From NCBI GenBank assembly GCA_014905635.1, contig JABVCE010000009.1, forward strand, positions 1,178,001 to 1,242,000: a stretch of 64,000 nucleotides of DNA. Direction: 5' to 3'. Below the pieces are notes generated by a model. It was not told the origin of the DNA, did not search any database, and was given only the letters and a program-made list of their open reading frames with translations. The position numbers were made by a program, and so were the translations under genes. Of this stretch, positions 2,776 through 60,541 are shown in pieces (the stretch's first letter is position 1; every line of letters begins with the position of its first letter). Source of the DNA: Scenedesmus sp. PABB004 (Eukaryota).

Positions 2776-3193
2776 GGCGCCTCCCCGTCCGCGGAGCGGG
2801 CGCCGCCTGCTGGCGAGAGGGCTGCCTCCCCTCAGGCGCGCGCCAAGCGTGCCGCGGCGGGGTGGGGCGGGCGCTAGGCAGGCCGGCGAGGCGCGAGGGC
2901 GGGGCTCTCACGGAGACGGCTGACGGGGAAGGCCCTCTCGGCAAAGACGGGCGCGGGGCGCGCTCATGAGGGGCAGCAGCAGGGCACAGGGCGTCCGCTG
3001 CGACGCGCCGCCGCGTGCGGCCGCGCCGCCGCCTGGGCCGCCGCCAGCCGGGCGCCCCGTAGCACAGAGCGGCCGCGGCGGCGGCGGCGGCGGCGCGGCG
3101 CGGCGTGGTGGTGCGGCAGCGCGCTGCTGTGCCGAGCGCGCACCGCGCTGCGGCGGCGCGCTCGGCGGTGGCCGCGCCGCGCGCGGCCACCGG

Positions 3194-3360
3194 CGCACCG
3201 ACGTGCCCACCGCTGCCCAGGAGCAGCAGGTAGGCCAGCCAGGCCGCCAGCGGCCACGCTGGGGCGGCGCGCCGAGGCGCACGCGCCGTCCCCCGTTGCG
3301 TGCACTCTCAGGCGCTCCCGCCGGTGGCGCGCCCGACAGGTCGATGCATGCGGTTCAGGG
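3194..3360 (-). pseudogene. Diverged duplicate of the 5' leader and signal-peptide exon of the HRGP gene (14779-14942); ATG replaced by ACG
   Basis: Reverse complement aligns to 14779-14942: AACCGCATGCATCGACCTGTCGGGCGC ... TGGCTGGCCT ... CTGCTGCTCCTGGGC ... GGGCACGTCG|GTGCG. Confidence 0.75.
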
Positions 3361-14376: not shown

Positions 14377-14846
14377 CGGCGGCGGGGACGAGGGCGTGCC
14401 AGGGCGGCGGCCTCCCGGGGCGTGCCGCGCCCCGCGCGCGCGAATGGGGGCGATGGCCGGCCTGTTCGTGCACCCGCCGGGCGAGCGGCCGCGTGTGCCG
14501 GCGCGCGCACCGCGCTCGTTGCAATGTGTCGGCCTCACCCGCGCGCTGCCAGCGTCCACCGAAGCCGAGTAGAACTCGCTCGTCCGGAGGTCCGCCCTCC
14601 GGCCCCGGCCGCGTGTGACCCCGGCCTGCCGCCGCGCTGGCTGTGCGGTCAAACACGAACGTTGCGATCGCGCAGGTCACACGTCCCCGCTTACGCGCGC
14701 ACTTACGCAAACGCCGGCGCTTTGCACCGCCCGCGAGGTCGCACGGGGCGCAGAAAACAGGCCTGGGACGCCGCTCTAAACCGCATGCATCGACCTGTCG
14801 GGCGCGGCACCGGGCGTAGCGCCTGAGGGCGCCGCAACGGCCGGGG

Positions 14847-17800
14847 ATGGTTCGCCGCCCTCGGCGCGCCGCCCCGGCGCGGCCGCTGGTGGTCTGGCTG
14901 GCCTTTCTGCTGCTCCTGGGCGGCGACGGGCACGTCGGTGCGTGGGGGGCCGCGCGGCGCGCGCCCCGCAGCGACTGCTGCTGCTCAAGGCCTTCGCCCG
15001 GCGCGCACGCGGCGCGCCCACCGCTGAGCGCCCCTCCCTCCGCTCCATCGCCCCGCAGTGAACGCCCAGGGCCGCGGCACGGCGGCGCTGGGCCCGCTGG
15101 TGGCCGCGCAGCGGGCGGCACCGGCGCAGCAGCAGCAGCAGCAGCCCGCGGCAGCGCCGGCGGCGCTGGACTCACTGCTGGCGCGCATGCGGGAGCAGCC
15201 GCTCCCCCCGGCGCCGGCGCCGGAGCAGCCGCAGCCGCCGGCGCCGCCGCCGCTGCGTCGGCACCGGCACCGGCGTGACGTGCCGGCGCCGGCGCCGCCG
15301 CCGCGCGAGCAGGAGGCGGCGCCGCCGGCGGAGCCACCCGCGCCGCCGCCGCCGCCGCCGGCCGAGGAGGAGGCGCCGCCAGCAGAGGCGCCGCCGGCGG
15401 ACGACGACGCGCCGCCGCCGGCGGACGACGAGCCGCCGCCGGCGGACGAGGAGGCGCCGGCGGAGGATGACGGGGAGGACGACGAGGACGCGGCGGCGCA
15501 CCGCGCGGCGCAGGCCGCGTGGCAGGCGCAGAACGACGCGCTGACGTCGCTGCTGCAGGCGGACGACGCGGCGCGCGGCGGCGGCGCGCCGGCGCGGCGC
15601 GCGCGCAGCCTGCTGCCGATCAAGGAGGTCACATGCTTCTACGACACCGTCAGCGGCCTCGTCGCGGGGCTGCGCGTGTCGCGACCCACGACCGACGGCG
15701 ACGTCACGTCGTCGCTCGTCGGCCGGCGCACGGCGCTGTCCAACACGTTTGCGCTGCCCGACGACGCGCGGCTGTACATCAGCGGCGTGAACGTCAGCTC
15801 CACGCGCGGCGGCGTGCTCTCGCTGCGCTTCGACCTCTCCAGCGGCGGGTCGCGCCTCTGCGTCGCGCGGCTCGGCGAGGCCGCGCTGCCGCCGCACGGC
15901 GCGCACTCGCGCGGCGCCGCGGCGCTCGCCGCGAGCATCGCGCGCGCCCAGGGCGCCGCGGCGGCGGCCGACGCGAGCGGGTCGTACGACGGCGAGAGCC
16001 CGCTGTACCGCGACCGGTCGGCGGGGCCCGCGCCCGTCACGTCGCGCTACTACAGCGGCCCGCTGCTGCGCGGGCAGCCCGCGGGCCTCGCCTCGCTCAA
16101 CCCGCTGCTCGACCGGCGCAGCAGGTGCGGCGGCGCGCGGGGACGGGGCGCCGCGCCGCGCCGCACCGTCGGGAGGCCTGTTCTGGCAGCCGCGCCGCCG
16201 CCGGCGGCAGCCCACGCGCGCCGCGCGCCCCGGCCGCAGGAACGTGGCGAGCTTTGGCAAGCGCAACTGCTGGCACTGGGTGCCGGCGGTGCAGGAGGAC
16301 CTGCAGTACGCCATCGACACGCAGCGCGGTGAGCGCCCGCGGCCGCGCCAGCAGCGCAGCGCGCGCCAGCAGCGCAGCGCGCGCCAGCAGCGCACGCGCG
16401 CCGCCGCGGCGGCGCCCGCTGACGCGGCCCGCCCCGCCCGCGCCACCCACGCGTGCGCGCGCGCCGCGCAGAGGCGGGCACGTGCTCCTACTGGCCGTGC
16501 AAGGACTGCAGCAAGGAGCCCTGGAGCGACGTCAACTGCTGCTGCTGGTCCAACAAGGACGGCCCCGGGCCGCGCCCGCCGAGCCCGCCGCCGCGCAGCC
16601 CGCGGCCGCCGCGGCCGGGGCGCAGCCCGCGGCCCGGCAGGTCGCCGCGGCCGGGGCGCAGCCCGCGCCCGGGCGAGTCGCCGCGGCCGGGGCGCAGCCC
16701 GCGCCCCGGCGAGTCGCCGGCGCCGCCGCCGCCGGGGCGCAGCCCGCGGCCGCCGAGCCCGCCGCCGCCGGGGCGCAGCCCGCGCCCCGGGCGCAGCCCG
16801 CGCCCCGGGCGCAGCCCGCGGCCGGGGCAGAGCCCCAGCCCGCCGGGGCCGCCGTCGAGCCCCGGGCCGCCGCGGCGGAGCCCCAGCCCGCGCCCGCGCG
16901 CGAGCCCCAGCCCCAGCCCGCTCAAGCGCAGCCCGCGGCCGAAGCGCAGCCCCAAGCCGGAGCCGCCGAGCAACTTCACCATCGGCCTCGCCGCGCGCGG
17001 GCAGCCGGGGTGCGTGCTGCCGCCGACGCCGCTGATACGCGCGCGCGTGTACCAGTACGCGGTCATGAAGCTCGCGGCCGCGGGCTTTGCGACAGACTAC
17101 AACATCCTCGCCGGCGACTGCACCTGCGCGGTCGACAAGGACCAGTTTGTGAGTGATTGCAGCGCAGCGCCGCGTGCTCGCCGCTGCGCACGCCGCTGCG
17201 CACGCCGCTGCGCACGCCGCACGCTGCACGCCGCACGCGCCGCGCCGCCGACCCTCCGCTGCTGACCCGCCCCAATCCCGCCGCCGCCCCCGCCACCGCC
17301 ACCCCAACCCAGGACACGCCAATGTACAGCTGCGGCATGGCGGTGGGCATCCAGAACCCCGACGTGGGCAGCCCCTACATCATCAGCGACTACGTGGCGA
17401 CCGACATTGACGCGAGCGGGCCCTTTGCCTGCATCGACGAGTACCAGCCCTGGTGCGCGCAGGCGGACGAGTACGCGACGTCCGCGTGCGCCCAGTTCCC
17501 CGCGCGCCCGGGGCAGTTCTGCACGATCGAGCCGCCCCCGGACCCGCTGCCGATGCCGGTGACGTTTGTGGACGAGGGCAACCGCTGCGCCGACCCGCCG
17601 GTGCTGTCGCCCGACGCGCAAGCGGCGCTGCGGGACTATGCCTTCAAGTTCACGACCGGCCTCGGCCTCGTGCTCACGTGGGAAAACTTCACCTGCGACA
17701 GCTGGGCGGTGAGGCCGGCAGCGCGGCGCGGGGCAGCGTGGGACGGGGACGGGGACGGGTGCCGGCCGAGGGTGCATGCGCGCGCACCGCGCCGCGCCGC

Positions 17801-20893: not shown

Positions 20894-22691
20894 ATGCAGG
20901 GCCAGCAGCTCGCCCGGGCTGGGGGCGAGGAGGACGGCCAGGCGCCCGACTGGCCCGCCGAGCGCGCCAGGTGGGGCGGCTCGAGGCGGCCGGCGGCGCG
21001 GCACGGCGCCACGGCGGCGGCGCGGCGCACCCCCGGAGCAGCGGCGCCTCGCGCGCGCCGCGTCGACCCCGCCCGCCCCGGCCGCCGTTTTTCGCAGGCT
21101 GCTGGACTCCAACCGGGTGCTCCTGGAGGACAACGTGCAGCTGCGCCAGGAGCTGCTGGCGCTGCAGCAGGAGCACGTCGCGCTGCTGCGCGCCCACCAC
21201 GGCACGAGCCTGCAGCTCGCAGAGCTGCAGCGCCAGCACGCGCACGTGTCGCAGGTGCAGCAGCTGCTGCACCTCCAGCAGTCGCACTCGCCCTTCCTGG
21301 CGTCGCAGTCGCTGCCGCAGCCGCTGCACCGCGGCGACGGCGCGCGCGAGGAGCAGCCGCCGCCGCCGGCGCCGCCTCACCCGCAGCAGCGGGCGGCGCG
21401 CGCGCGCCAGGCAGAGCTGCTGGGGCGCTGCGCGAGCGCCAGCGACGTCGCGAGCGTGGCCAGCCGTGACAGCGTGTCGCCGAGCCGCTCGGGCGGCAAG
21501 CCGCCGCGCCACAAGCACAAGCTGCACAGGCGCGCGCCGCGCCGCGCCGGGGGCGGCAGCGGCGGCCGCGGCCCGCGCCCGGCCTCGCGGCGCGCGCTCG
21601 CGCCCCCACCCCGCCGCGCCCCGCCCGTACCCACGCACAGCTCCATCAAGCGCCTGGGGCAGCTGCTGTCGCCGCGCAAGCCCTGGGGGGTCGGCGGCAT
21701 GCCCCGCTCGCAGAGCGCCAAGTCGCTGGGCAGCGGGCCGAGCGAGGGCGGCGAGCCCGGCGACGCGCCCGCGCCGCCCGCGCCGCCGCGGCTGGTGGTC
21801 GACGTCGGCCTGCTCACCGGCCTGACCAGCCCCAGCGCCGCGGACGGCGCGCCGGGCGGCGCCCGGCTGGGCGCGGCCGGCCCGCGGCCGAGCAGCGCGG
21901 CCAGCGTGCGCGCGAGCGGCAGCGGCAGCGGCGTGCCGCCGCGCAACTCGGCGGCCAGCGGCGGCGACCCCGCCGCGCTGCTGCGGCGCTCGTGCGGCGC
22001 GAGCCTGCTGGGCAGCCGGCGGGAGGGCGGCAGCGGCGGCGGCGCGCCCGGCGGCGGCGGGGAGGGCTCGTGGCGCAGCCGGCGGCCCGCGCCGCTCACG
22101 TACCTGCGGCCCGTGCAGTCGGCGGCGGGCGCGCCGCAGGCGCCGGCGCTTCTGGCAGGCCCGGCGACGGCGGCGGGCACAGGCCGGCTGCCGGCCAGCC
22201 CCTGGCAGGGGGACCCGAGCAGCTGCCCGCCCTCGGTGCTGTGCGGCCCGCTGTGGCGCGACGCGCGGGAGCAGGCGGCGACGCCCGCGGCGTGCCGCTA
22301 CGCCGCCGCCAGCAGCCCGGGCGGCAGCAGCACCAGCGGCAGCGGCTTCAGCTTCAGCAGCAGCGGCCGCACCGCGCGGGAGCTGCCGCCGCCGGGCCCC
22401 GAGCCCGCTGGCACCTCTTGCGAGCGCGCGCCGACGCCGACTGGGCCCAGGGCTGCAGCGGCAGCCGCTGGCGTCGGCGGCCGCGGCGCGGCCAGCGGCC
22501 GCAGCAGCAGCGGCGGCAGCGACGCGGCGGGCGCCGCGCTCAGCAGCAGCACGCTCAGCAGCACCGCTGACGAGCCGCGGGCGCCAGCGGCGGCCCCGGC
22601 GGGCGAGGCGCCGCCGTCGCCGCGCGGCGGGCGCTGCAGCGGCGGCGGCGCGCGGCCGCCCTCGCCGCTGGGCAGCGGTGTGCGGGGCTGA
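20894..22691 (+). CDS. Hypothetical protein: short coiled coil followed by Ser/Gly/Pro-rich disordered region
   Basis: ATG 20894, intron 20971-21097, LLEDNVQLRQELLALQQEH coiled coil, GC-AG intron 21530-21640, TGA at 22689-22691. Confidence 0.55.
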
Positions 22692-23117
22692 CGCTGTCGG
22701 GGGACGCACTGCGCTCTGTCTCGGGGGGCGGGGGGCGTGCTCGCTTTGGCCGGGCGCCTTCGCCGCGGAGCGCGCCCTGCTGGTCGGCGCGCGGAGCGAG
22801 CGCTGGCGCGCGCTCGGGTCGGCAGCGCGCGGTGCTGCGGCGGCAGATGAGCCCTGCCTGTTGCGCCGCGCGGGCGCAAAGTGTGAGCTGTGCGCGCTGC
22901 GGCGGCGACCCAAGATCGCAGTGTCACCGCGCGCTGTCGCGGCGTTGCGCCGCCCGCAGAACTCGCCGCGCAGCCCCCGCCGGCGCTCCCCGCACGCGCC
23001 AGTCCCAGCACTCACTCTCGCGCCCGCCCTCCCCCGGTGACCAGCTTTTATTTGCGCGCCGGCGGCCGCCGGGCACTCGCTGGCGCGCTCTCCCTCTGCA
23101 CCGCGACCGCGGGCGCC

Positions 23118-25126
23118 ATGCTAGCGCAGCTCGGGCGCATTGCGCCTGGCTCCGCGCACGCGTCGCGGCGAGCCGCGCCGGGCCCCGCGCCGGGCGCCGC
23201 CGCTCGGCGCTGCTGCGCGGCGCCCGCGAGCCGGGCGGCAGCCGACACGGACAAGGCGCAGCCCGATTGGACGGGTGGGCACGCCCTGGGCGCGCGGCGG
23301 GCGCCGGGGCGCGATCCCGCAGCGCGGCGCCAGCCGGCGGGCAGAGGCAGAGGCTTGCGCGCTCACCGCCGCCGCGCCGCGCGGCCAGGCGAGGGCGTGC
23401 TGTCGCGGGTGGTCAACTGGATGATCAACACCAAGCCCATCTTCGAGGTCTTCAAGCTCGGCGCCAAGGGCGCGATGAAGAGCACCACGCGCGCGGCGGG
23501 CCTCGACTGGGACGCCCACGTCGCGGCGATGGCGCGCGACCCCGAGGCGCGCCCGCCGCGGCGGCCGCGGGCGCCCGCGCAGCCGCCGCCGCTTTGCGCG
23601 CCCGCGTGACGCGCCGCCGCGCGCGTGCGCGCGCCCCGCCCCGCCGCGCCGCGCAGCTGCAGCGGCTGTGCGACGAGTTTGCGGCGCGCCCGCCGGGCCT
23701 GACCTACCCGGCCTATTACACCGTGCCCTTCCACTCTTACGACGACGGCAACCTCAACTGGCAGGCGCGCGTGGGAGGGGGGGGAGGGGAGGGGTCAAAG
23801 GGAGGGAGAGTGGGGCGGGAGCGGTGCAGGCGGAGGGCCGGGGCGGGCGCGACACAGCGGCGCGCCGCGGCGGCGCGGCGCGGCGGGCGACGCAGCGGCG
23901 GCGGCGCGGCGCGCAGGCGGCGTACGAGGTCGAGCCCGCGAGCTACGCGATGGCGCTGCGCACGTGGAAGGACGAGGCGCTGACCGCGGAGGAGGCGATG
24001 GCGCGGCTGCGCGGCAACATCAACGCCGAGATCGCGGTGCGCGCGGCAGCGGCCGCGCGCGACGCGCCGCGCCGGCGGCGGGGCGGCCGCGACGCGGCGG
24101 CGGGACGGCCGCACGACGCCGCGACACGCCGCGCGCCGCGCCGCGCAGGGCTACCACGCGCGGCACGGCGTGCCCGCGCCGGGTCGGCTGCTGGACGTCG
24201 GGTGCAGCACGGGCATCAGCAGCCGCTGGTATCAGGCCCTCTACCCCGACGCCGACATCACCGGCCTCGACCTCTCACCATACTTCCTCGCCGTCGCGGA
24301 GCGTGAGGAGCGGTGCGCCCAACGCGCCGCGCCGCGCGCCGCGGCCCTGGCACCGCCGCGCGAGCCCTGCGCCGAGCGCGCCGCGGCGCGACCGCCGCCG
24401 CCGCCGCGCAGGCGGCGCGCCGCGCCGAAGCGCATCCGCTTTGAGCGCGGGCTGGCCGAGGACACGGGGTATGCGTCCGGGTCGTGGGACGCCGTGGTGT
24501 TCAGCTTCATCGCCCACGAGTGCCCCCAGGCCGCGCTGACCGCGTTTGTGGCCGAGGCGCGCCGCCTGCTGCGCCCGGGCGGCGTCGTCGTGTTCGTCGA
24601 CAACAACCCGCGGTGCGGCGCGGCCGTGCGGCACGGGGCGGCGCGGCGGCGGCGGTGACGGGGCGGCGGGCCCGCAGTCGCGGTCGCGGTCGCGGCGGCC
24701 GCGGCGCGCGCGCTCACGCCCCTGCCCCGTGTTGCCCCTCAATCGTCCCTTCCCGCCTCCACGCGCCGCGCAGGTCGAGGACGATCCAGAACCTGCCGCC
24801 GCTGCTCTTCACGCTCATGAAGAGCACTGAACCGTGGAGCGATGAATACTACAGGCGAATGACGCGCCGGCGCGACGCCGCGCATGATGCGGGCCCACCA
24901 TCCGCACGCGCGCCGCCGCGCCGTGCCGCGCCGCGCGCCGCGCCGCGCTGCGCCCGCGCGCGCGCCCTTGCCCCGCGCCGCGCGGGGGGCCGACGCCCGC
25001 ACCGCCGCGCCCGCGCCCGCGCGCAGCTTCGACCTTGAGGCGGCGCTGCGGGTCGGCGGCTTCGCGTCGGTCGAGACGACCGAGGCCGACCACCGCCACC
25101 GCACCGTGTTCGGCATCGCCGCGTGA
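23118..25126 (+). CDS. Class I SAM-dependent methyltransferase (UbiE/COQ5-like, cyanobacterial type), probably plastid-targeted
   Basis: YPAYYTVPFHSYDDGNLNW, LLDVGCSTGIS (motif I), ITGLDLSPYFL, RLLRPGG, LMKSTEPWSDEYY. Confidence 0.88.
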
Positions 25127-26251
25127 CGAGGGCGGCCGACGACGAGGCGCACGTGCCGCGAGGCACGCTGGGCGCGGCGGCCTGGCAGCGGCGGCGAGCG
25201 AGCGCGCGGGGCGAGGCGTGGGCCCGAGTAACAGCGCGGCTCTGACCTGCAAATCTGGCGCGCTGCGGCCGCCGCGGGCTCAGCGCGGGACCCAGCGCTG
25301 TCGAGCGCCAGCGCTCGGCACGCCGCCGGCACACCAGCTGTCACCGACGGCTGCTGCAGCAGCCGTAACCAGCTGGTTACAGCAGCCCACGCGCCATCCT
25401 GCAGCGCGCCATCCTGCGGCGAGCGCCCGTGTGCACGGCCCCGCCGCAGTCACCGCGCCGGACAGCTGCTGGCTAGAACAAACCATCCTGCGGCCGCAAC
25501 GGACAACGAACTGGGACGACGCCATACATGCGCTCGCTGGCGAGAGCCCGTGCACGGCCCTGCCGCTGTCTTCGCGCCTGGCGGCCACTGGCTACAGCAG
25601 CCCACGCGCCATCCTGCCGCCGCCCGCACCTCCTGCCCTGGTGCCCAACCAATCAGTCAATGAATCCACCCAGCAATTGACAGAATCTGTCAGTCATTCG
25701 ACGCTGCGTCGCGCTGCGCCGCCCGTCTGCGTGCGGGCTCAGCACACGCTGCCCGACAGCTGCCCCCGCAGGCCGTACCACCAGTGCTTGGCGGGCAGGC
25801 CCTCGGGCTTGCGGCTGGCCAGGAAGCTGCCCTCGCCGTCCACGCCGCGCATGCCCTCGTCCAGCACCTCCAGCTCCCTGCGGCGCGGCGCAGCGACGTG
25901 GCAGGTCGGCCGTGACGCGCGCGGGCGCTCGGCGCGTCGCGCTGCGCCGCCCCCGCCTGCGCCGTGCGCGCCTGAGCAGGTTGTTGGTCACGCTCGGGCA
26001 GACGCCCAGCTCCAGGCCCAGGTGCAGGTCCAGCAGGAACTGGGGAGGGCGGCGCGCGCGGGTCAGGCGCAGGCGCGCGGGGCTGCGCAGGGCCGCGCTC
26101 CGTGGCGGCGCACCTGGATGGCGCTGCGGCGCCAGAGCACCTCTGGCCAGCTGGTGAAGCCGCTGCCCCACATGTCCCAGTCGCGCAGCAGGTCCTGGCT
26201 GCGCTTCACAAACTGCACCACCGCCTGCGCGCGGGACAGCGCGGCGGTGAC
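24649..26251 (+). repeat. Source segment of the circularly permuted duplication, bounded by direct repeats GCGGCGGTGAC
   Basis: GCGGCGGTGAC at 24649-24659 and 26241-26251; the whole interval recurs, inverted and permuted, at 27569-29194. Confidence 0.9.
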
Positions 26252-27514
26252 CGGGCCAGCTCGTGCGGCGCTGCCGCGCGCAGCTGCCTGGCGGGCGCGC
26301 CTGCTGCCGCGCCGCCGCCACCGCGCCGCTGTCGCGGAGGCCGCGCGCGCCACACACCTCGGGCTTGTTGACCAGCCACCACGCCATGTCGCGCTTGACC
26401 AGGCCCATCTCCCGCGCCATCGCCGCGAGCGCGCGCTCGCTCGTGCAGCGCTGCCGCCACAGGCACAGGCTGAACAGCAGCTGCGGCGGCGACGGCGGCA
26501 GCACGGCGCGTCGGCCGGCGCCGCGCTGGGCCGGCGGCAGGGCCGCCACACTCCGCACTCCGCGCCGCCGCGCCCACCCTGCGCCGCCGCCGCGGCGCCG
26601 CACCTGCATGACCTGGTCGAAGAGCATGCCGGGGATGCTGGCGTAGGGCCGGGACGCAAAGCCGTACACGTTTGGCTTCGCTGGGCTGCCGTGCGGCCCG
26701 CCCGCCGTTCCGGGCAGGCTCGCCGAGTTGACGCGCAGCTCGCGGCCCGCCGCGCTCGCGGTCAGCGCGTGCGCCCGGTCCACGCACGTCACGAACGCCG
26801 GCGGCAGCGTCGCGCGGTGCCTGCGGCGCAGCGCGCGGGGCGCGGCTCGGCGGCGCGCCGTGCCGCGCGGGCACAGGGCGGCGCGGCCACGCCGCGCCGC
26901 GCCGCGCTGCGCTCGGCGCCGGCCGCGCGGCCGTCCGCACCGGTAGAGCTGCTGCCAGCAGCCGCCGTGATGCTCCTCCGTGCTGTTGGGCCAGCTGCGG
27001 CGGGGCGGCGGCGGCCGCGTCGGTCGCGAACGCGAGCGGCGGCAAGCGCCGCAGCGGAGGCGCAGCGCCGCGCCGCGCCTCACCGCGCCAGCGCCAGCGC
27101 CTGCCACAGCGCCTGCTCGCTCGCCACCAGGCGCAGGCGCCGGTCCTGCGGGCGTGCGGCGGCACGGTGCGCGCGGGCGTTGCTCGGGGCCCGAAACAGC
27201 AGCATGCGCTCGCGAGGACGCAGCGCCGCGCCCGCGCCAATCCGCGCGCCCGCGCCGCGTCCGCGACGGCGCAGTGCCGTTCCGGTGCGCCCAAGCCCAG
27301 CGCGTCGCACCTGCACGCAGAGCTTGGCCAGCTCGGGCCCCTCGAGCTGCCTGGCGGGCGCGCGCGGCGCAGCGGCCGCGTGAGCGGCGCGCGGGCGGCG
27401 CACGCGGACGTGTCTCGTCGCCTGTTCACACCTGAGGATCGAGAGCAGCACGGGCTCGTCGAAGTCGCTCAGCGACAGCGGCGGCGGCGCGTCGGCGGGC
27501 TCGGCGGGCGCCAT
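25739..27514 (-). CDS. F-box-like protein (multi-exon)
   Basis: LSLSDFDEPVLLSILR|QLEGPELAKLCVQ|DRRLRLVASEQALWQALALAR|W...CWQQLY fits the F-box pattern; spliced frame ends GQLSGSVC*. Confidence 0.7.
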
Positions 27515-27743
27515 CGCTGCGCGTGCGAGGGCCGTTCCCGCGTCCTGGGATGCGCGCCGCGCTTTTTCACAGCTCTGGGTCCCGCGCTGCGCCCGCCGCG
27601 GCCGCAGCGCGCCGGATTTTGCACGGTCAGAGCCGCGCTGTTACTCGGACCCACGCCTCGCCCTGCGCTCGCTCGCCGCCGCTGCCAGGCCGCCGCGCCC
27701 AGCGTGCCTCGCGGCACGCGCGCCTCGTCGTCGGCTGCCCTCG

Positions 27744-28096
27744 TCACGCGGCGATGCCGAACACGGTGTGGTGGCGGTGGTTGGCCTCGGTCGTCTCGAC
27801 CGACGCGAAGCCGCCGACCCGCAGCGCCGCCTCAAGGTCGAAGCTGCGCGCGGGCGCGGGCGCGGCGGTGCGGGCGTCGGCCCCCCGCGCGGCGCGGGGC
27901 AAGGGCGCGCGCGCGGGCGCAGCGCGGCGCGGCGCGCGGCGCGGCACGGCGCGGCGGCGCGCGTGCGGATGGTGGGCCCGCATCATGCGCGGCGTCGCGC
28001 CGGCGCGTCATTCGCCTGTAGTATTCATCGCTCCACGGTTCAGTGCTCTTCATGAGCGTGAAGAGCAGCGGCGGCAGGTTCTGGATCGTCCTCGAC
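27744..28096 (-). pseudogene. Duplicated last two exons of the methyltransferase
   Basis: SRTIQNLPPLLFTLMKSTEPWSDEYY|SFDLEAALRVGGFASVETTEANHRHHTVFGIAA* (parent has ADHRHRT); no 5' exons. Confidence 0.85.
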
Positions 28097-28248
28097 CTGC
28101 GCGGCGCGTGGAGGCGGGAAGGGACGATTGAGGGGGCAACACGGGGGCAGGGGCGTGAGCGCGCGCGCCGCGGCCGCCGCGACCGCGACCGCGACCGCGG
28201 GCCCGCCGCCCGGTCACCGCCGCCGCCGTCGCGACGTCCCGTGCGCAG

Positions 28249-28751
28249 GAGGTGGTGCAGTTTGTGAAGCGCAGCCAGGACCTGCTGCGCGACTGGGACA
28301 TGTGGGGCAGCGGCTTCACCAGCTGGCCAGAGGTGCTCTGGCGCCGCAGCGCCATCCAGGTGCGCCGCCACGGAGCGCGGCCCTGCGCAGCCCCGCGCGC
28401 CTGCGCCTGACCCGCGCGCGCCGCCCTCCCCAGTTCCTGCTGGACCTGCACCTGGGCCTGGAGCTGGGCGTCTGCCCGAGCGTGACCAACAACCTGCTCA
28501 GGCGCGCACGGCGCAGGCGGGGGGCGGCGCAGGCGGGGGGCGGCGCAGCGCGACGCGCCGAGCGCCCGCGCGCGTCACGGCCGACCTGCCACGTCGCTGC
28601 GCCGCGCCGCAGGGAGCTGGAGGTGCTGGACGAGGGCATGCGCGGCGTGGACGGCGAGGGCAGCTTCCTGGCCAGCCGCAAGCCCGAGGGCCTGCCCGCC
28701 AAGCACTGGTGGTACGGCCTGCGGGGGCAGCTGTCGGGCAGCGTGTGCTGA
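28249..28751 (+). pseudogene. Duplicated last three exons of the F-box gene
   Basis: EVVQFVKRSQDLL...|FLLDLHLG...|RELEVLDEG...GQLSGSVC*; splice sites retained, no 5' exons. Confidence 0.85.
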
Positions 28752-29411
28752 GCCCGCACGCAGACGGGCGGCGCAGCGCGACGCAGCGTCGAATGACTGA
28801 CAGATTCTGTCAATTGCTGGGTGGATTCATTGACTGATTGGTTGGGCACCAGGGCAGGAGGTGCGGGCGGCGGCAGGATGGCGCGTGGGCTGCTGTAGCC
28901 AGCGGCCGCCAGGCGCGATGACAGCGGCGGGGCCGTGCACGGGCCCTCGCCAGCGAGCGCATGTATGGCGTCGTCCCAGTTCGTTGTCCGCGGCGGCCGC
29001 AGGATGGGTTGTTCTAGCCAGCAGCTGTCCGGCGCGGTGACTGCGGCGGGGCCGTGCACGCGGGCGCTCGCCGCAGGATGGCGCGCTGCAGGATGGCGCG
29101 TGGGCTGCTGTAACCAGCTGGTTACGGCTGCTGCAGCAGCCGTCGGTGACAGCTGGTGTGCCGGCGGCGTGCCGAGCGCTGGCGCTCGACAGCTGCGGGC
29201 GGCGCGAGTTCGAACCACTGGAGCCCTGCGCCCCGGGGCTCAGCTGCGCGCCAGCGCTCCCGGCTCTACCGACCCGTCCCTCACATCCACCTTCGCTTGT
29301 GGCAACCGCCGTCAGCCTGAGCGCCGCCGCTGCGGAGGAGAGCAGCGCAGCGCTCACGGCGACGCGCGTGCCGCCGGCCCGTCCAGGGCGCGTGCGGTCC
29401 AGGCCGCACGC

Positions 29412-30759
29412 ATGACGGACGCACTTGCCGTGACGGATGCCGTGGCGAACCCGGCGGAGGCGATCCGCCAGCGCCTGCAGGCGCGCCAGGACGCTCGCAT
29501 CAGCGAGCGGCAGCAGCGCCAGGCGGCGCTGGGCGCCCAGGCGGACCCGCGGGAGGACGTGAGCGACTTCCTGGCGGGCTTCTCCGCCGACCACGCTCGC
29601 CTGGCAGCCCGCAGCGAGGCGCTGGCGGCGGCGGCGGCGGCGGGCGGGGAGCAGCAGACAGCGGCGGACCGCGCCGGCCTGCTGAGCTCACTCGACGCGC
29701 TGGCGGCCGACGTCGCGTCCCTGGAGGCCGGCACCGCGGCGTCTGCGTACTTCCTTCCTCCCTACGAGCTGCGCGCAGCGTCGGCGGCGGCGGCCGAGCT
29801 GCGCGCGCGCGTCGCGGGCGCCAAGGCCGCACTCGCGCCCAAGCGGCGCTTCGCGTTCGCCAAGGCCGACGTGCGGCGCAGCGCGTCCGCAGCGCCCGGC
29901 GCGCCCGCAGCGCAGGAGGCGGCGGCGCCCGACGTGCAGCCGCCCGACCAGGCGGCGCCGGGCGCCGGCGCCGGCGCCGGCGCGGCCGGCTGTGCGCCGC
30001 CGCTGAGCGCGCAGGACCAGGCCCTCGTTGCGTCGGGCCGGGGCCTCGCGGGCCTGCGCGGGCGGCGCGTTGTGCTGCGCGGCGCGGCGCTCGGCGGCGC
30101 GTTTGTGCTGCACGACCTGCAGGACTGCGCGGTGGTGCTGCTCGGCCCGCTCTCAGCGCTGCGGCTGCAGGCGCTGCGCGACTGCACCGTGGCCGCCGGC
30201 CCCGTCGCGGGCGCAACGTTTGTCAGTGGTGCAGAGGGCTGCACCCTCATGCTCGCGTCGCACCAGGTGTGCGGCGGCAGGGCTCGCGGGGCAGCGGCGC
30301 ACCCACCGCGGCCGGCTGCCGGGAGCCGCCGCGCTCTCGCGCGCGGCGCCGCTCATGCCGCCGCCGCCGCCGCCGCCGCGTCAGGTGCGCATCCACGACG
30401 CCGTGGGCTGCGACTTTTACCTGCGGGTGCGCAGCCGGCCAATCATAGAGCACAGCACGGGCCTGCGCTTTGCGCCGTACGACGGCGCGGCGGCGCTGCA
30501 GCTGGCGCTGGAGCAGCCGCCGGAGCAGGCGCAGGAGCGGTTGGGGCAAGAGCAGCCGCGCGAGCAGCTGCAGGAGCTGCTGCAGCAGCAGGAGGCCTGG
30601 CTCGCGGGCGCGGCGCTGGGCGTCCCGAACGAGCTGTGGCGCTGCGTCGACGACTTTGGGTGGGTCAAGGCCTCGCAGTCGCCCCACTGGGCGGTGCTTC
30701 CGGAGGCCGAGCGCCGCCCGCCGCCGCCGCGCGCGGGGCTGCTGGCGGCGGGGCGCTGA
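29412..30759 (+). CDS. TBCC: Tubulin-folding cofactor C (2 exons)
   Basis: AYFLPPYELR, LAPKRRFAF, C-CAP beta-helix GPVAGATFV...LASHQ|VRIHDAVGCDFYLRVRSRPIIEHS...FAPY, VDDFGWVKASQSPHW. Confidence 0.93.
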
Positions 30760-30942
30760 GCCGGGCGAGCGAGCGCGTGCGCGTGGCCGTCTGTTACACA
30801 CGGCAATCGCCGCAGCGCGTCCGTCGCAGCGCCGGCCGGCCCGCCCGCCCGCCCAGGCGCGAGCCCGCGCAAGGCCCCCCACCAGCGCCCGCCCAGCTCG
30901 CCCCCTGATGTTGCTACAATGCAGGCGCCGCCGCCGCCCGCC

Positions 30943-31760
30943 TCACGCGGACGGGGGTGCCTGCGTGCCGCAGCTCCCGAGCGACGCGAGCACCGCCTCG
31001 GGCTGCGGCCACGCGCCGGTGTTGAGCCGGCTGTGCAGCAGCTGCCCGCCCGCGGCGCGGACCTCGAACGAGCCGCGCCGCCCCGGGCCGTCGCTGTTGC
31101 CCTCCACCACCACGTTGGGGAAGGCCGCCTCTATCGCGTCAGCGAGCTCAATGAACCTGCGCCGCGGCGCCGCCAGCGCGGCGCGGCGTCTGCGTCGGCG
31201 CCCCGCCGCCGCCCTCTCTGCCGCGGCCGCCCGCCGACGCGCCACCGCCGCCGCCGCTGCGGCCAGCCCCTGCCCGCCGCCGTCGCTGCCGCCGCCGCCG
31301 GCGCCGCACCGGTCCACCTCCTCGTCGTCGTACTCCACGACCACGACGTCGGGCTGCGGCCCGCCGAGCGTGGGGCAGTCGCACTGGCTGTAGTGCCGCG
31401 CCAGCTGCCACGCGCCGCCGCTACCGGGCGCCGGCGCCCAGGGCCGGCCGCCGCCGAGCAGCTGCCAGGCCGCCGCAGCGTGCTGCTGCGCCGCCAGCGC
31501 CGCGACGCTGCTCAGGCCTGCGCGGCGGCGGGGAGCGGGGCAGCGCGGGGTCCGCGCCGCACGCTCCGCAGCAGGCAGGGCGCGTACTGCGCGCCCCCGT
31601 GGCCCGCAAGCGCGGGAATGCGCGCCCTGGCACGCGCACCAGCGGCCTGCTGTGCCGCGCCACTGCTGCCCGCTCCAGCGAGCCCGCCCGCGCCCGGCGC
31701 GGCCTCCAGCTGCGCCAGGGAGCGGGACAGCGGGCTCAGGGCGCGACGCACGGCCTGCAT
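30943..31760 (-). CDS. Rdx family (SelT/SelW/SelH-like) thioredoxin-fold protein lacking the CxxC/U motif; organelle-targeted
   Basis: VVVEYDDEEVD..RFIELADAIEAAFPNVVVEGN..GRRGSFEV....LLHSRLNTGAWP; presequence-like N-terminus. Confidence 0.75.
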
Positions 31761-45636: not shown

Positions 45637-48600
45637 TCAGCCGGCCGGCGCGCCCGGCGCCGCCGCCGCCGCCGCCGTGGGCTGCGCGGCGCCCCCGCCG
45701 CCGGCGCCGAGCGTCGGCAGCACGAGCACGCCAGCCGCGGCGCCCGCGGCCGCGGCGGCGCGCCGGCGTGCGGCCTTGCGCTGCCGCGCGCCCTTGGCGT
45801 GGCCGGCGCCGCCGCCGGGCGCCGCGGCGCCCGCGCGGTGCGCGGCGATGGCCGCCGCCGCCGTCGTCGCGGCGCGCGCCTGCTGCGCCGCGAGCGCGGC
45901 GGCGGCCTCGCGCCGCGCGTCGTCGGCGGCCGCGACCGCCGCCGCGCGCTCGGCGCGCGCCTCCTCCACCTGCGCCGACAGCGCGTCGAGCAGGGGCGCC
46001 GGCACGGGCCGGCCCGCGCGGCGGAAGGCCTGCACGGCGTCGCGCGCGGGGCCGAGCGGCAGCGCCCAGCCCGCGCGCGCCGCGGCGGCCTCCCACGCGG
46101 CCCACTGCTCCTCGCTGGGCGCGTAGCCCACCGCCACCGCGCCCCACAGGCCCTCGCCCAGCGCCGCGCCGCCGAGGCCGCCCAGGCCCGCCCACAGGCG
46201 GTCCGCAAAGTCGGCCGCCCACTTGGCGCTCGGCAGCGCGGAGCGCTGGCTCAGCCGCGCCGCCGCCCAGAGCATCGCCGCCGCGGGCGCGCCGCCAAAC
46301 TCGGGCACGCGCGCGTGCGCGACCGCCAGCATCTGCACCAGCCACCAGCTCGCGGGCGCAAAGCGCGCCGCCGCGAGGCAGCGCAGCGCGCCGCCCAGCT
46401 GCTCCGCGGTCAGCGAGGTGGACACGAGCGACACGCACTGCGCGCGGCGGCGGCGCGCGCGACGCGGTCGGCGGGCACGCGCACAGCGCCGCGCGCGCCG
46501 CCGCCGCGCTTGCCGCCGCCGCCGCCGCCGCCGCCGCCGCTGCCGCCGCCGCCCCGCGCGCGGCCGCCCCCCGTGCGCGCACCTGGGCGTAGTTCTTCAC
46601 AAAGAGCGGCCCCGGCGTGTGCTGCGCTGCCGCGAGCACGTCCAGCAGCCCCGCCACGCCCGCGACGGGTGCGTGCTGCAGCCCGCCGGCGACAAGGCAC
46701 GACACCAGGTGGTCCACCGTCGCGGGCTCGGGCGACACGCGCGCGCCCTGGAAGGCGGTCAGCACTGCGAGGACCTGTTTGGGGTGCAGGGCCTTGCGGT
46801 CGAGCGCGCCGCAGAAGCGGGCCCACCACTTGAGCCAGAGTCGCTGCGCGCGGCTGCCCGGCGCCGGCGCGTAGCCCCAGCGCGCCAGCGCGCCGCCGAG
46901 GTGCACCGCGTCGCCCGCCTCCATCGCGCCCAGTTTGGGCAGCGTCGCGCCGAGCAGCTCCTCCACAAAGCCAGGCCCCGGCACGTGCCCGCACGACGCG
47001 AGGCCCCACGCCGCCGTCGCCGCGACGTGGACGTTGGCGCGCCACAGCGCGGGCGCGAGCGCCGCCGCGACCTGGCGGCGGGCCGGCGCGCGCGTCGGCC
47101 GCGCGCGCCGCCGCCGCCGCGCGGCGCGCGCCCGCGCGGCGCGGCCGCACCTTTTCGCACCACGCCGCCGGCGGCGCGTAGCCGAGCGCGGCGAGCGCGC
47201 CGAGCACGCTCGCGAGCGCGGGCGTGCCAAAGGTGGGCAGCTTCTCCGCGACCTCGCCCAGGAACTCGGCCAGGAAGTCGTCCCGCACGAGGCGCCGCAT
47301 CGAGCTGAACGCGCACAGCGCGGTCGCGAGGTCCTGCGCGGTCGCGGCGCGCGCACGGCGCACGCTCGCGGCAGGGCCCGGCACCGGCGGCGCGCGGTGG
47401 GCCAGGCACGCGCGCACGCCGCCCCCCCCCCCCCCCCTCTCTCTGTCGCGCGCCGCGCCTGGTCGTCGAAGAGGGGCAGCTTGGTGTAGACCTGGGCGTA
47501 GTACGCGCGCATCCAGGCCGCCTCGGGCTCGTAGCGCAGGGCGCTGAAGCTGCCCATGACCGACGCGAGCGCGATGCTGTCCAGCACGCTCAGCTTGGGC
47601 TGGGGGGGGGGGGGGGGGGGCGACGCGGCGGCGGCGCGGCGGGTCGCGTGGGCGCGCGCGCACGCGCGGGCGGCGGCGCAGGCGCGCGGCGGCGAAGGCG
47701 CGCGGCGCGCGGCGCACCTCGACCGCGGCGGCGAGGTCGTTGAGGAAGGGGCGGGGCGGCTTGTAGCCGAGCGCCGCGAGGCTGGCGGCGAGCTTGACCA
47801 GGTCAAAGCCGCTCGCGGCGGGCAGGCGCGGGCGCAGCGCGGCGACGTAGTTGTGCGCCCACGCGGGGAAGGCGATGCAGCTCTTGACCTCGCGCGGCGC
47901 GAGCTCGAGCCGGCACAGCGCGCGGCCGCACATCACGAGCTGCCCCGGCGTGAGCAGGGAGAGCTTGTGGCGGCTGACCGCGAGCCAGCGGTTGAGCCAG
48001 GCCTGGTCGGGCGCGGCGCGCAGCTTGGCGAGCGCGGCGATGATGTAGACGTACTCCGGCCCGCCCATGGCGCTCATCTTGTCCTCGCTGCAGATCAGCA
48101 GCTCGCGCAGCAGCGCCTGCGCGCCACGCGGCGGCCGCGACGGCGGCGGCGGCGTCAGGGCGTGCGCGCAGGCGTGCGCGCGCGCGGGCGGCGCGCCTGG
48201 CCCGCGCGGCCTGCCCGTGGCGCTCGCCGGCGGTGCGCGCTGTCCCCCCTCTCCCCGCGCGCCTTTGCGTTGTTCCAGCCCTTGGCGCTCATGCTGCGCG
48301 GCTCGCACACCGCAGCGAGGCGGTTGAACAGCACCGTGAGCTCCGCTGGGCCCGCGGCGCCGCGGCAGCGCAGCCACACCGCGGCGAGGCCGTCCACGCT
48401 GTCCGCGCCGCGCACGAGCGACGCGAGGTGCGCGCGGCGCTCCGCCATGCCCCACGTCGCGCTGACCAGGGACGCGGGGTGCGGGTGCACCGGGCCGCGC
48501 CGCGCGTACGCGCGCTCCTGCTGCTGCTGCTGCTGCGCGCGCTGCTGGTGGTGGTGCTGCTGCTCCTCCCGCTGCTGCTCCTCCCGGCTGTGCTCCTGCT

Positions 48601-58031: not shown

Positions 58032-60541
<2,510 letters not shown>

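Follow-up and report, generated by a model that had tools for sequence, protein, structure and literature searches.

Here, we analysed a 64,000-nucleotide stretch of the green alga Scenedesmus sp. PABB004 (contig JABVCE010000009.1, positions 1,178,001 to 1,242,000 of the forward strand; hereafter the window), in which two adjacent blocks, A and B, occur a second time 1.3 kb away, inverted and in permuted order. They lie between the body of a class I S-adenosylmethionine (SAM) methyltransferase gene (gene1) and the gene for tubulin-folding cofactor C (TBCC), and involve a gene located between these two (gene2). We give about an even chance to the reading that the locus is a ~3-kb micro-inversion with inverted duplication of both flanks, an arrangement called dupINVdup or staggered-break inversion. 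A sequence-only reading had earlier taken the duplication for the footprint of an excised DNA circle re-integrated nearby. Its view of a single microhomology-mediated event without a mobile element stands, while the circle is not the unique solution, since a simulated inversion gives the identical order.

The present order of the locus is G1-A-B-C-rc(A)-rc(B)-T, where G1 is the rest of gene1, T is TBCC and rc denotes the reverse complement. The first copy of A (A1, 24649..25301, plus strand), delimited by Pfam, tblastn and the repeat arms, holds the 3′ end of gene1. The first copy of B (B1, 25297..26251, minus strand), placed with the gene2 product P0003, a TGTAA scan and the repeat arms, holds the last three exons and the 3′ untranslated region (UTR) of gene2 and ends about 20 nt inside the upstream intron. 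Segment C (26252..27568, minus strand) is single-copy and carries exons 1-6 of gene2, its ATG and 54 bp upstream of the ATG. It is followed by the inverted copy of A (A2, 27569..28228, minus strand; blastn and global alignment) and the inverted copy of B (B2, 28226..29194, plus strand), where the 3′ exons and 3′ UTR of gene2 run in sense orientation before TBCC, with a TGTAA at 29109. The first exon of TBCC (29412..30281, plus strand; translation and Pfam) has its ATG 217 bp past the end of B2.

The repeat search and blastn both returned the order rc(A) then rc(B), and not the rc(B)-rc(A) of a simple inverted duplication, at the positions that the sequence-only reading had given. The inverted pairs covering A were 24644-24728/28144-28228 (85 nt, 98%), 24704-25205/27665-28166 (502 nt, 96%), 25204-25247/27625-27668 and 25251-25301/27569-27619, and those covering B were 25284-25954/28536-29206 (671 nt, 98%) and 25950-26247/28226-28523 (298 nt, 98%). 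By blastn, block A aligned as 24627-25301 against 28247-27569 (96.6% of 682 columns) and block B as 25297-26247 against 29193-28226 (96.9% of 968 columns). In a self-comparison of the window, the A/B pair was the only large repeat: it made up two of the nine matches of at least 80 columns at E <= 1e-20, while the other seven spanned at most 286 columns at no more than 89.5% identity. As far as the letters themselves can tell, the duplicated arrangement is real.

We then simulated, from an ancestor G1-A-gene2-T with the three genes on the plus strand, the product of an inversion with duplicated flanks by joining the left piece up to the end of A, the reverse complement of the piece from A to the end of B, and the right piece from the start of B. 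The simulated product and the present sequence gave one colinear alignment (13,023 against 13,000 bases, 99.5%) with no rearranged piece. Because B-C is gene2 reversed, the present order can be rewritten as G1-A-rc(A-gene2)-rc(B)-T, which is an inversion of [A, gene2]. The blocks are mutually inverted, their order is interleaved as A1-B1-C-A2-B2, and on this reading there would be two new joints with microhomology of 6 bp and 11 bp and no prior repeats at the breakpoints, as expected of a dupINVdup.

In the presumed ancestor, gene1, gene2 and TBCC would all have stood on the plus strand. Four break or switch points would be involved. Block A would begin at one within an intron of gene1 and end at another, 175 nt beyond the stop codon of that gene; block B would begin at a third, within an intron of gene2, and end at the fourth, some 80-85 nt beyond the TGTAA of gene2. 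Either two pairs of staggered nicks would have been filled in and the middle piece rejoined in reverse, or a replication fork would have changed template twice at short matches. By both routes, [A, gene2 5′ part, B] would end up in reverse, with two copies each of A and B and with new joints at 25296-25301, at the 6-bp match AGCTGT, and at ~28220, at the 11-bp match. Under the inversion, 27568/27569 and 29194/29195 would be native sequence, and the empty site TTTTTC-ACAGCT-GCGGGCGG, which the sequence-only reading had proposed to look for in related strains, would never have existed. After the event, the interleaved inverted repeats may have exchanged sequence by gene conversion.

The joints were examined at the base level. 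The inner joint (28212..28247; alignment and microhomology test) connects the start of A with the intron end of B, and at ~28220 position 26251 is fused to position 24649, which makes it a head-to-tail joint of the source ends. This is a new joint under every history. The 11-bp repeat GCGGCGGTGAC claimed for it is indeed present at 24649-24659, at 26241-26251 and, on the minus strand, at the inner joint. The joint is untidy, with the 11-bp perfect match sitting inside an imperfect likeness of about 30 bp between the two native contexts, and it contains extra letters, including the 8-bp palindrome GTCGCGAC, with three substitutions nearby. At the outer ends, the motif ACAGCT was found where it had been described (27569-27574 and 29189-29194), and both ends of the copy map to one source point, 27569 pairing with 25301 and 29193 with 25297. 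At this point, the A1/B1 boundary (25296..25301; alignment and microhomology test), the minus strand reads ACAGCG, so that five of the six bases match ACAGCT.

To measure how often such matches arise by chance, 200,000 random joints were drawn from the window. At least 5 matching bases occurred at a frequency of 0.027, at least 6 at 0.012 and at least 11 at 0.00028. The microhomologies at the inner joint and at the outer ends are beyond chance, and both joints that an inversion needs are rare by chance (P about 0.012 for 6 bp and about 0.0003 for 11 bp). The sequence-only reading had seen no transposase, long terminal repeat or terminal inverted repeat, and likewise the Pfam scans of the open reading frames (ORFs) and the repeat search gave no mobile-element features. 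The event thus appears to be microhomology-mediated and free of a mobile element. Transport by a mobile element (for instance a Helitron, a tyrosine-recombinase element or a retrocopy) is scarcely credible: beyond the existence of a duplicated segment nothing speaks for it, and the unit is wholly explained by the introns, exons and UTRs of two ordinary genes. The introns are kept, so the copy is not a retrocopy; the ORFs of the region gave only methyltransferase and TBCC domains in Pfam, with no transposase or recombinase domain; and the unit lacks terminal repeats and occurs only twice in 64 kb.

Global alignment showed 12 substitutions in 635 aligned bases and 5 indels of one or two bases between A and its copy, and 12 substitutions in 939 bases between B and its copy, where the copy has insertions of 17 bp and 4 bp. 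The two halves have similar substitution rates (Fisher p = 0.40), and the source coordinates of A and B abut with a 5-bp overlap. Clearly different divergence, or source coordinates that do not abut, had been named beforehand as signs of two separate events, and neither was seen. Two independent duplications were rejected because the halves are equally diverged and their source coordinates abut; the duplication of A and B appears to be a single event.

The 24 substitutions lie near the block ends (mean distance 115 nt against 204 expected, P = 0.00015), with substitution-free runs of 636 and 412 bases (P < 1e-5). Close to the A/B side the copies differ by about 5%, with 10 substitutions in 209 bases and 8 in 158. 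The block centres may have been evened out by gene conversion between the inverted repeats, in which case the event would be older than the average divergence of 1.5% suggests; alternatively, repair synthesis near the breakpoints may have been error-prone. B2 alone carries a 16-nt unit tandemly doubled around 28509-28540. In A2, the copies of the gene1 exons keep 27 of 27 amino acids (28098-28018) and 31 of 33 (27845-27747, with D>N and R>H). At the two differing sites, all ten foreign homologues that cover them have the D and R of A1 (11 were aligned, one of them gapped).

We next weighed the inversion against the insertion of a circle. A ~1.6-kb circle, closed at the 11-bp match that links 26251 to 24649, would have entered the divergent spacer between gene2 and TBCC at ACAGC, whether joined into it or copied there by a replication fork in one turn of the circle, and would have left the source intact. 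We consider this history unlikely. It accounts for the permuted order, the head-to-tail joint and the single source point of both outer ends, for microhomologies beyond chance and for the equal divergence of the halves. The same change from A-B to B-A is reportedly the circle signature of the cattle colour-sidedness translocations. It has also been read as evidence of a circle in the human segmental duplications described by Chicote et al. (PMC7450558). Circular permutation with a head-to-tail joint and outer ends at a single source point are both present here; what the locus does not offer is an order that no simpler linear rearrangement can produce, as the inversion yields the identical one. 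A permuted and inverted duplicate close to its source has the same topology as an inversion with duplicated flanks, so that permuted order is diagnostic of a circle only for direct or distant copies. In the published circle cases the stress is on non-tandem, distant ones, for which, as they are described, the inversion alternative does not arise (PMC7450558).

Economy leans towards the inversion, which takes two new joints and one event, whereas the insertion histories take three joints and the circle two steps. The geometry leans the same way: an inversion forces the inverted orientation and a copy that abuts single-copy gene2, both of which are free choices for a circle, and under a circle it would be by coincidence that the copy is inverted, that it lies 1.3 kb away and that the opening point is between gene ends. 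This opening point, the A/B boundary, lies 175 nt downstream of the stop codon of gene1 and some 80 nt downstream of the TGTAA of gene2. A surviving inversion must break between gene ends, so this position fits an inversion, while the opening of a circle is unconstrained along 1.6 kb. Tolerance leans this way too: an insertion would split a divergent spacer of 277 bp, with 54 bp of native sequence left upstream of the ATG of the conserved gene2, while under the inversion the native flanks of gene1, gene2 and TBCC would all be 650 bp or longer. The sixth base points in the same direction, since the inversion takes one arbitrary substitution there, while under the circle position 27574 must have mutated, by chance, to the T of the target. 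A metagenome contig described below, which agrees with the supposed copy at 7 of 8 sites differing between B1 and B2, sits poorly with a circle, but this is one contig at a depth of 5.7 and the argument is weak.

A copy-paste insertion can also be drawn up with no circle at all, by an event of the MMBIR (break-induced replication guided by microhomology) or FoSTeS (template switching at stalled forks) type. A fork broken in the gene2/TBCC spacer would have made three template switches, the first to 25301, the second from 24649 to 26251 and the last at ACAGC, on its return. Microhomology is found at every one of these points, and the untidy inner joint and the substitutions near the segment ends fit error-prone repair synthesis. 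It shares with the circle the three joints, the split promoter and the opening point between gene ends, and it must in addition copy exactly one unit length and return at the same 5 bases; we hold it to be quite improbable. Taken jointly, a circle or some other copy-paste insertion is a possible origin of the locus, albeit a doubtful one.

Several points weigh against the inversion. The inverted state of the core is inferred from this one genome, and the published cases compared here are far larger, with 508 kb in Chlamydomonas and cytologically visible inversions in Drosophila. At only 1.3 kb, the inverted single-copy core is shorter than its two flanks together (0.65 and 0.95 kb). The ancestor that we infer leaves just 229 bp from the gene1 stop to the gene2 ATG, which is tight for a 3′ UTR and a promoter. 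The first joint has a C at 25296 that is in neither of the two presumed native ends. The derived state of A2 at both differing exon sites is what a decaying spare copy would show under either history, and is no help to the inversion. Finally, a circle or copy-paste history yields the same sequence equally well. The sequence of one genome fits inversion and circle alike, and the class to which the locus is assigned depends on the ancestral orientation of gene2. Taken together, the indirect arguments tilt towards the inversion, and the probability not given to the readings weighed here goes to other or mixed histories.

We also asked whether the copy might come from a chimeric long read or from merged haplotypes, and we rate such an assembly artefact as very unlikely. 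As many as 24 substitutions and 7 indels separate the copies; the structure, which lies more than 24 kb from either end of the window, is no simple fold-back; and the joints show microhomology like real rearrangements. On the other side, the annotated proteins that match the locus come from a 77-contig assembly, and its boundaries are not bridged by metagenome contigs. Two freshwater-metagenome runs (X1 and X2), and no RNA run among those listed, share words with the locus (0.08 and 0.05), and 7 contigs from X1 and 9 from X2 were placed on it; the findings given here are those among the 16 pieces listed of 23. None of the placed contigs bridges any of the four boundaries with at least 31 letters on each side, so the assembly is neither supported nor refuted by them. 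Three listed pieces are longer than 100 nt, a 579-nt contig (28607-29200) and a 212-nt contig (29355-29500) from X1 and a 151-nt contig (28390-28556) from X2; the others are matches of 19-42 nt from unrelated GC-rich contigs.

The 579-nt contig of X1 differs from the window by 25 letters and 25 gap letters over 594 positions, at a depth of 5.7. Of the 8 sites within it that differ between B1 and B2, 7 show the B2 state, and only 29060 shows the B1 letter. At 28903-28904, where B2 has CG and B1 has TG, it has CA, which suggests that B2 holds the older state there. The contig fits, weakly, a rearrangement that predates the split from the relative, or a faster change of B1, and it is, equally weakly, at odds with B2 being a recent junk copy of an unchanged source; it is a single contig of low depth and may be the orthologue of B2 or of an unduplicated B alike. 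The 151-nt contig of X2 has a single 16-nt unit with G6, one G more than B1, and is without the doubling of B2. The doubling is probably derived in B2, and the missing G of B1 may be real or a homopolymer error. As it matches neither copy exactly, with one G setting it apart from B1 and the doubling from B2, this contig does not discriminate between the histories. To the 3′ end of gene2 and the 5′ end of TBCC (28607-29200 and 29355-29500), the X1 contigs show about 95% identity; a close relative of the alga is thus present in public data and might be used as an outgroup. In two scans of metagenome contigs (599 and 471 pattern matches, the latter with an in-frame TBCC query), no relative of the locus was found by tblastn.

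The genes themselves are ordinary. Gene1, on the plus strand, was identified as a class I SAM methyltransferase by Pfam matches to Methyltransf_11 (2e-16) and Methyltransf_25, which fall on the exon before block A. Besides part of an intron, block A takes in the two final exons (24772-24852 and 25025-25123) and the stop codon (25124-25126), and it extends 175 nt past the latter, as located by tblastn of P0004, the database protein that matches gene1. P0004 has 862 amino acids, in which a low-complexity N-terminal part (21042-22679) is joined to the methyltransferase (24131-25126), while the gene1 homologues of other algae have 311-368 amino acids; the P0004 model looks like two genes fused into one.

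Gene2, on the minus strand, runs from its ATG at 27514-27512 to the stop at 25741-25739 and encodes a product of 298 amino acids (P0003), identical to the database entry 'hypothetical protein HT031_003476 [Scenedesmus sp. PABB004]'. Its last three exons in block B lie at about 26226-26117, 26042-25971 and 25879-25742. The usual green-algal poly(A) signal is TGTAA, and the TGTAA scan found a single one in the 3′ UTR, at 25381. Homologues were detected among 8 of 3,977 candidates at E <= 0.001, gene2 itself included, and the seven foreign ones, which come from Tetradesmus and Monoraphidium among others, are 36-64% identical, so that gene2 is conserved across organisms. The homologues recovered for genes of the locus include ones from Tetradesmus obliquus, Scenedesmus sp. 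NREL 46B-D3, Monoraphidium minutum and Raphidocelis subcapitata. We do not claim a family for it: an F-box-like match in Pfam had E = 0.22 and failed the cut-off, and PF12937 is precomputed on one homologue. The gene2 3′ UTR (25340-25625; copy at 28866-29121) contains direct repeats with motifs of 33-34 nt that are 215 nt apart and 94% identical, and further ones with motifs of 56 nt at a spacing of 119 nt and 84% identity. Two short palindromes lie at ~25345-25385, and the TGTAA is within one of them. Gene3, on the plus strand, encodes TBCC (Pfam TBCC_N 7e-17, TBCC 7.4e-11).

Rfam and tRNA scans of 23000-31000 found no RNA genes. G+C is 76-85% throughout the 64-kb window. Elsewhere in the window, weaker repeats were an inverted pair at 3165-3358 and 14776-14969 (198 columns, 83%), a tandem-like array at 16582-16968 (76-79%) and direct matches of about 90 nt between 46477-46572 and 59989-60103 (87-90%). 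The genome is described as having 39.8 Mb in 77 contigs, with 78.5% GC and 1.31% repeats (PMC12571836), which agrees with the window, and the locus provides a clean, base-resolved small rearrangement in a repeat-poor genome.

If the inversion is true, a gene has been flipped harmlessly, with the duplicated flanks carrying the neighbouring sequence of each gene along. The inverted pairs A1/A2 and B1/B2 are interleaved, and each could flip the intervening DNA by homologous recombination; the segment may thus be able to flip again, and gene2 would be intact in every isomer. Should the improbable circle prove right after all, the locus would hold a complete three-joint record of excision and of re-entry into a promoter 1.3 kb away in a green alga. 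The circle of 1.6 kb would then, with the same small likelihood, have been made of the 3′ ends of two convergent genes. A limited literature search on circle-mediated duplication found no algal case by title.

Whichever of these histories applies, the locus belongs to known classes of complex rearrangement. The human segmental duplications called cSDPs, as described by Chicote et al. (2020, PMC7450558), resemble it in their permuted order, the head-to-tail fusion joint, the retained source and joints that carry only microhomology or small indels. They are unlike it in that their copies are distant or on other chromosomes, where inversion is no explanation, while the copy here is inverted and 1.3 kb away; in addition, the microhomology at the fusion is 11 bp here and 1-2 bp in the cases reported there (PMC7450558).

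In Drosophila, 17 of 29 inversions are reported to have inverted duplications at their breakpoints, and the account of Ranz et al. (2007, PMC1885836) derives the same arrangement from two pairs of staggered breaks. The arrangement seen here is what this model predicts from two staggered break pairs, fill-in and end joining, and the duplicated gene fragments, with later decay by substitutions and small indels, are also alike. The Drosophila inversions are chromosomal and polarised with outgroup species, whereas here one gene is concerned and its ancestral orientation is presumed; and the microhomologies of 6 bp and 11 bp would also fit template switching.

The class dupINVdup is a named class of complex structural variant in descriptions of human genomes (PMC5338099). 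On chromosome 16 of Chlamydomonas reinhardtii CC-503, one such variant is described, with 508 kb and inverted duplicated flanks of 3.7 and 2.3 kb (PMC9940879). The scale differs, with a core of 1.3 kb and flanks of 0.65 and 0.95 kb here against 508 kb and 3.7 and 2.3 kb there, and the inversion, which in Chlamydomonas was seen against parental strains, is in Scenedesmus deduced from the arrangement. The locus shares with the Chlamydomonas and human variants the order of left flank, inverted right flank, inverted core, inverted left flank and right flank, together with genes partly duplicated at both flanks and breakpoints without prior repeats.

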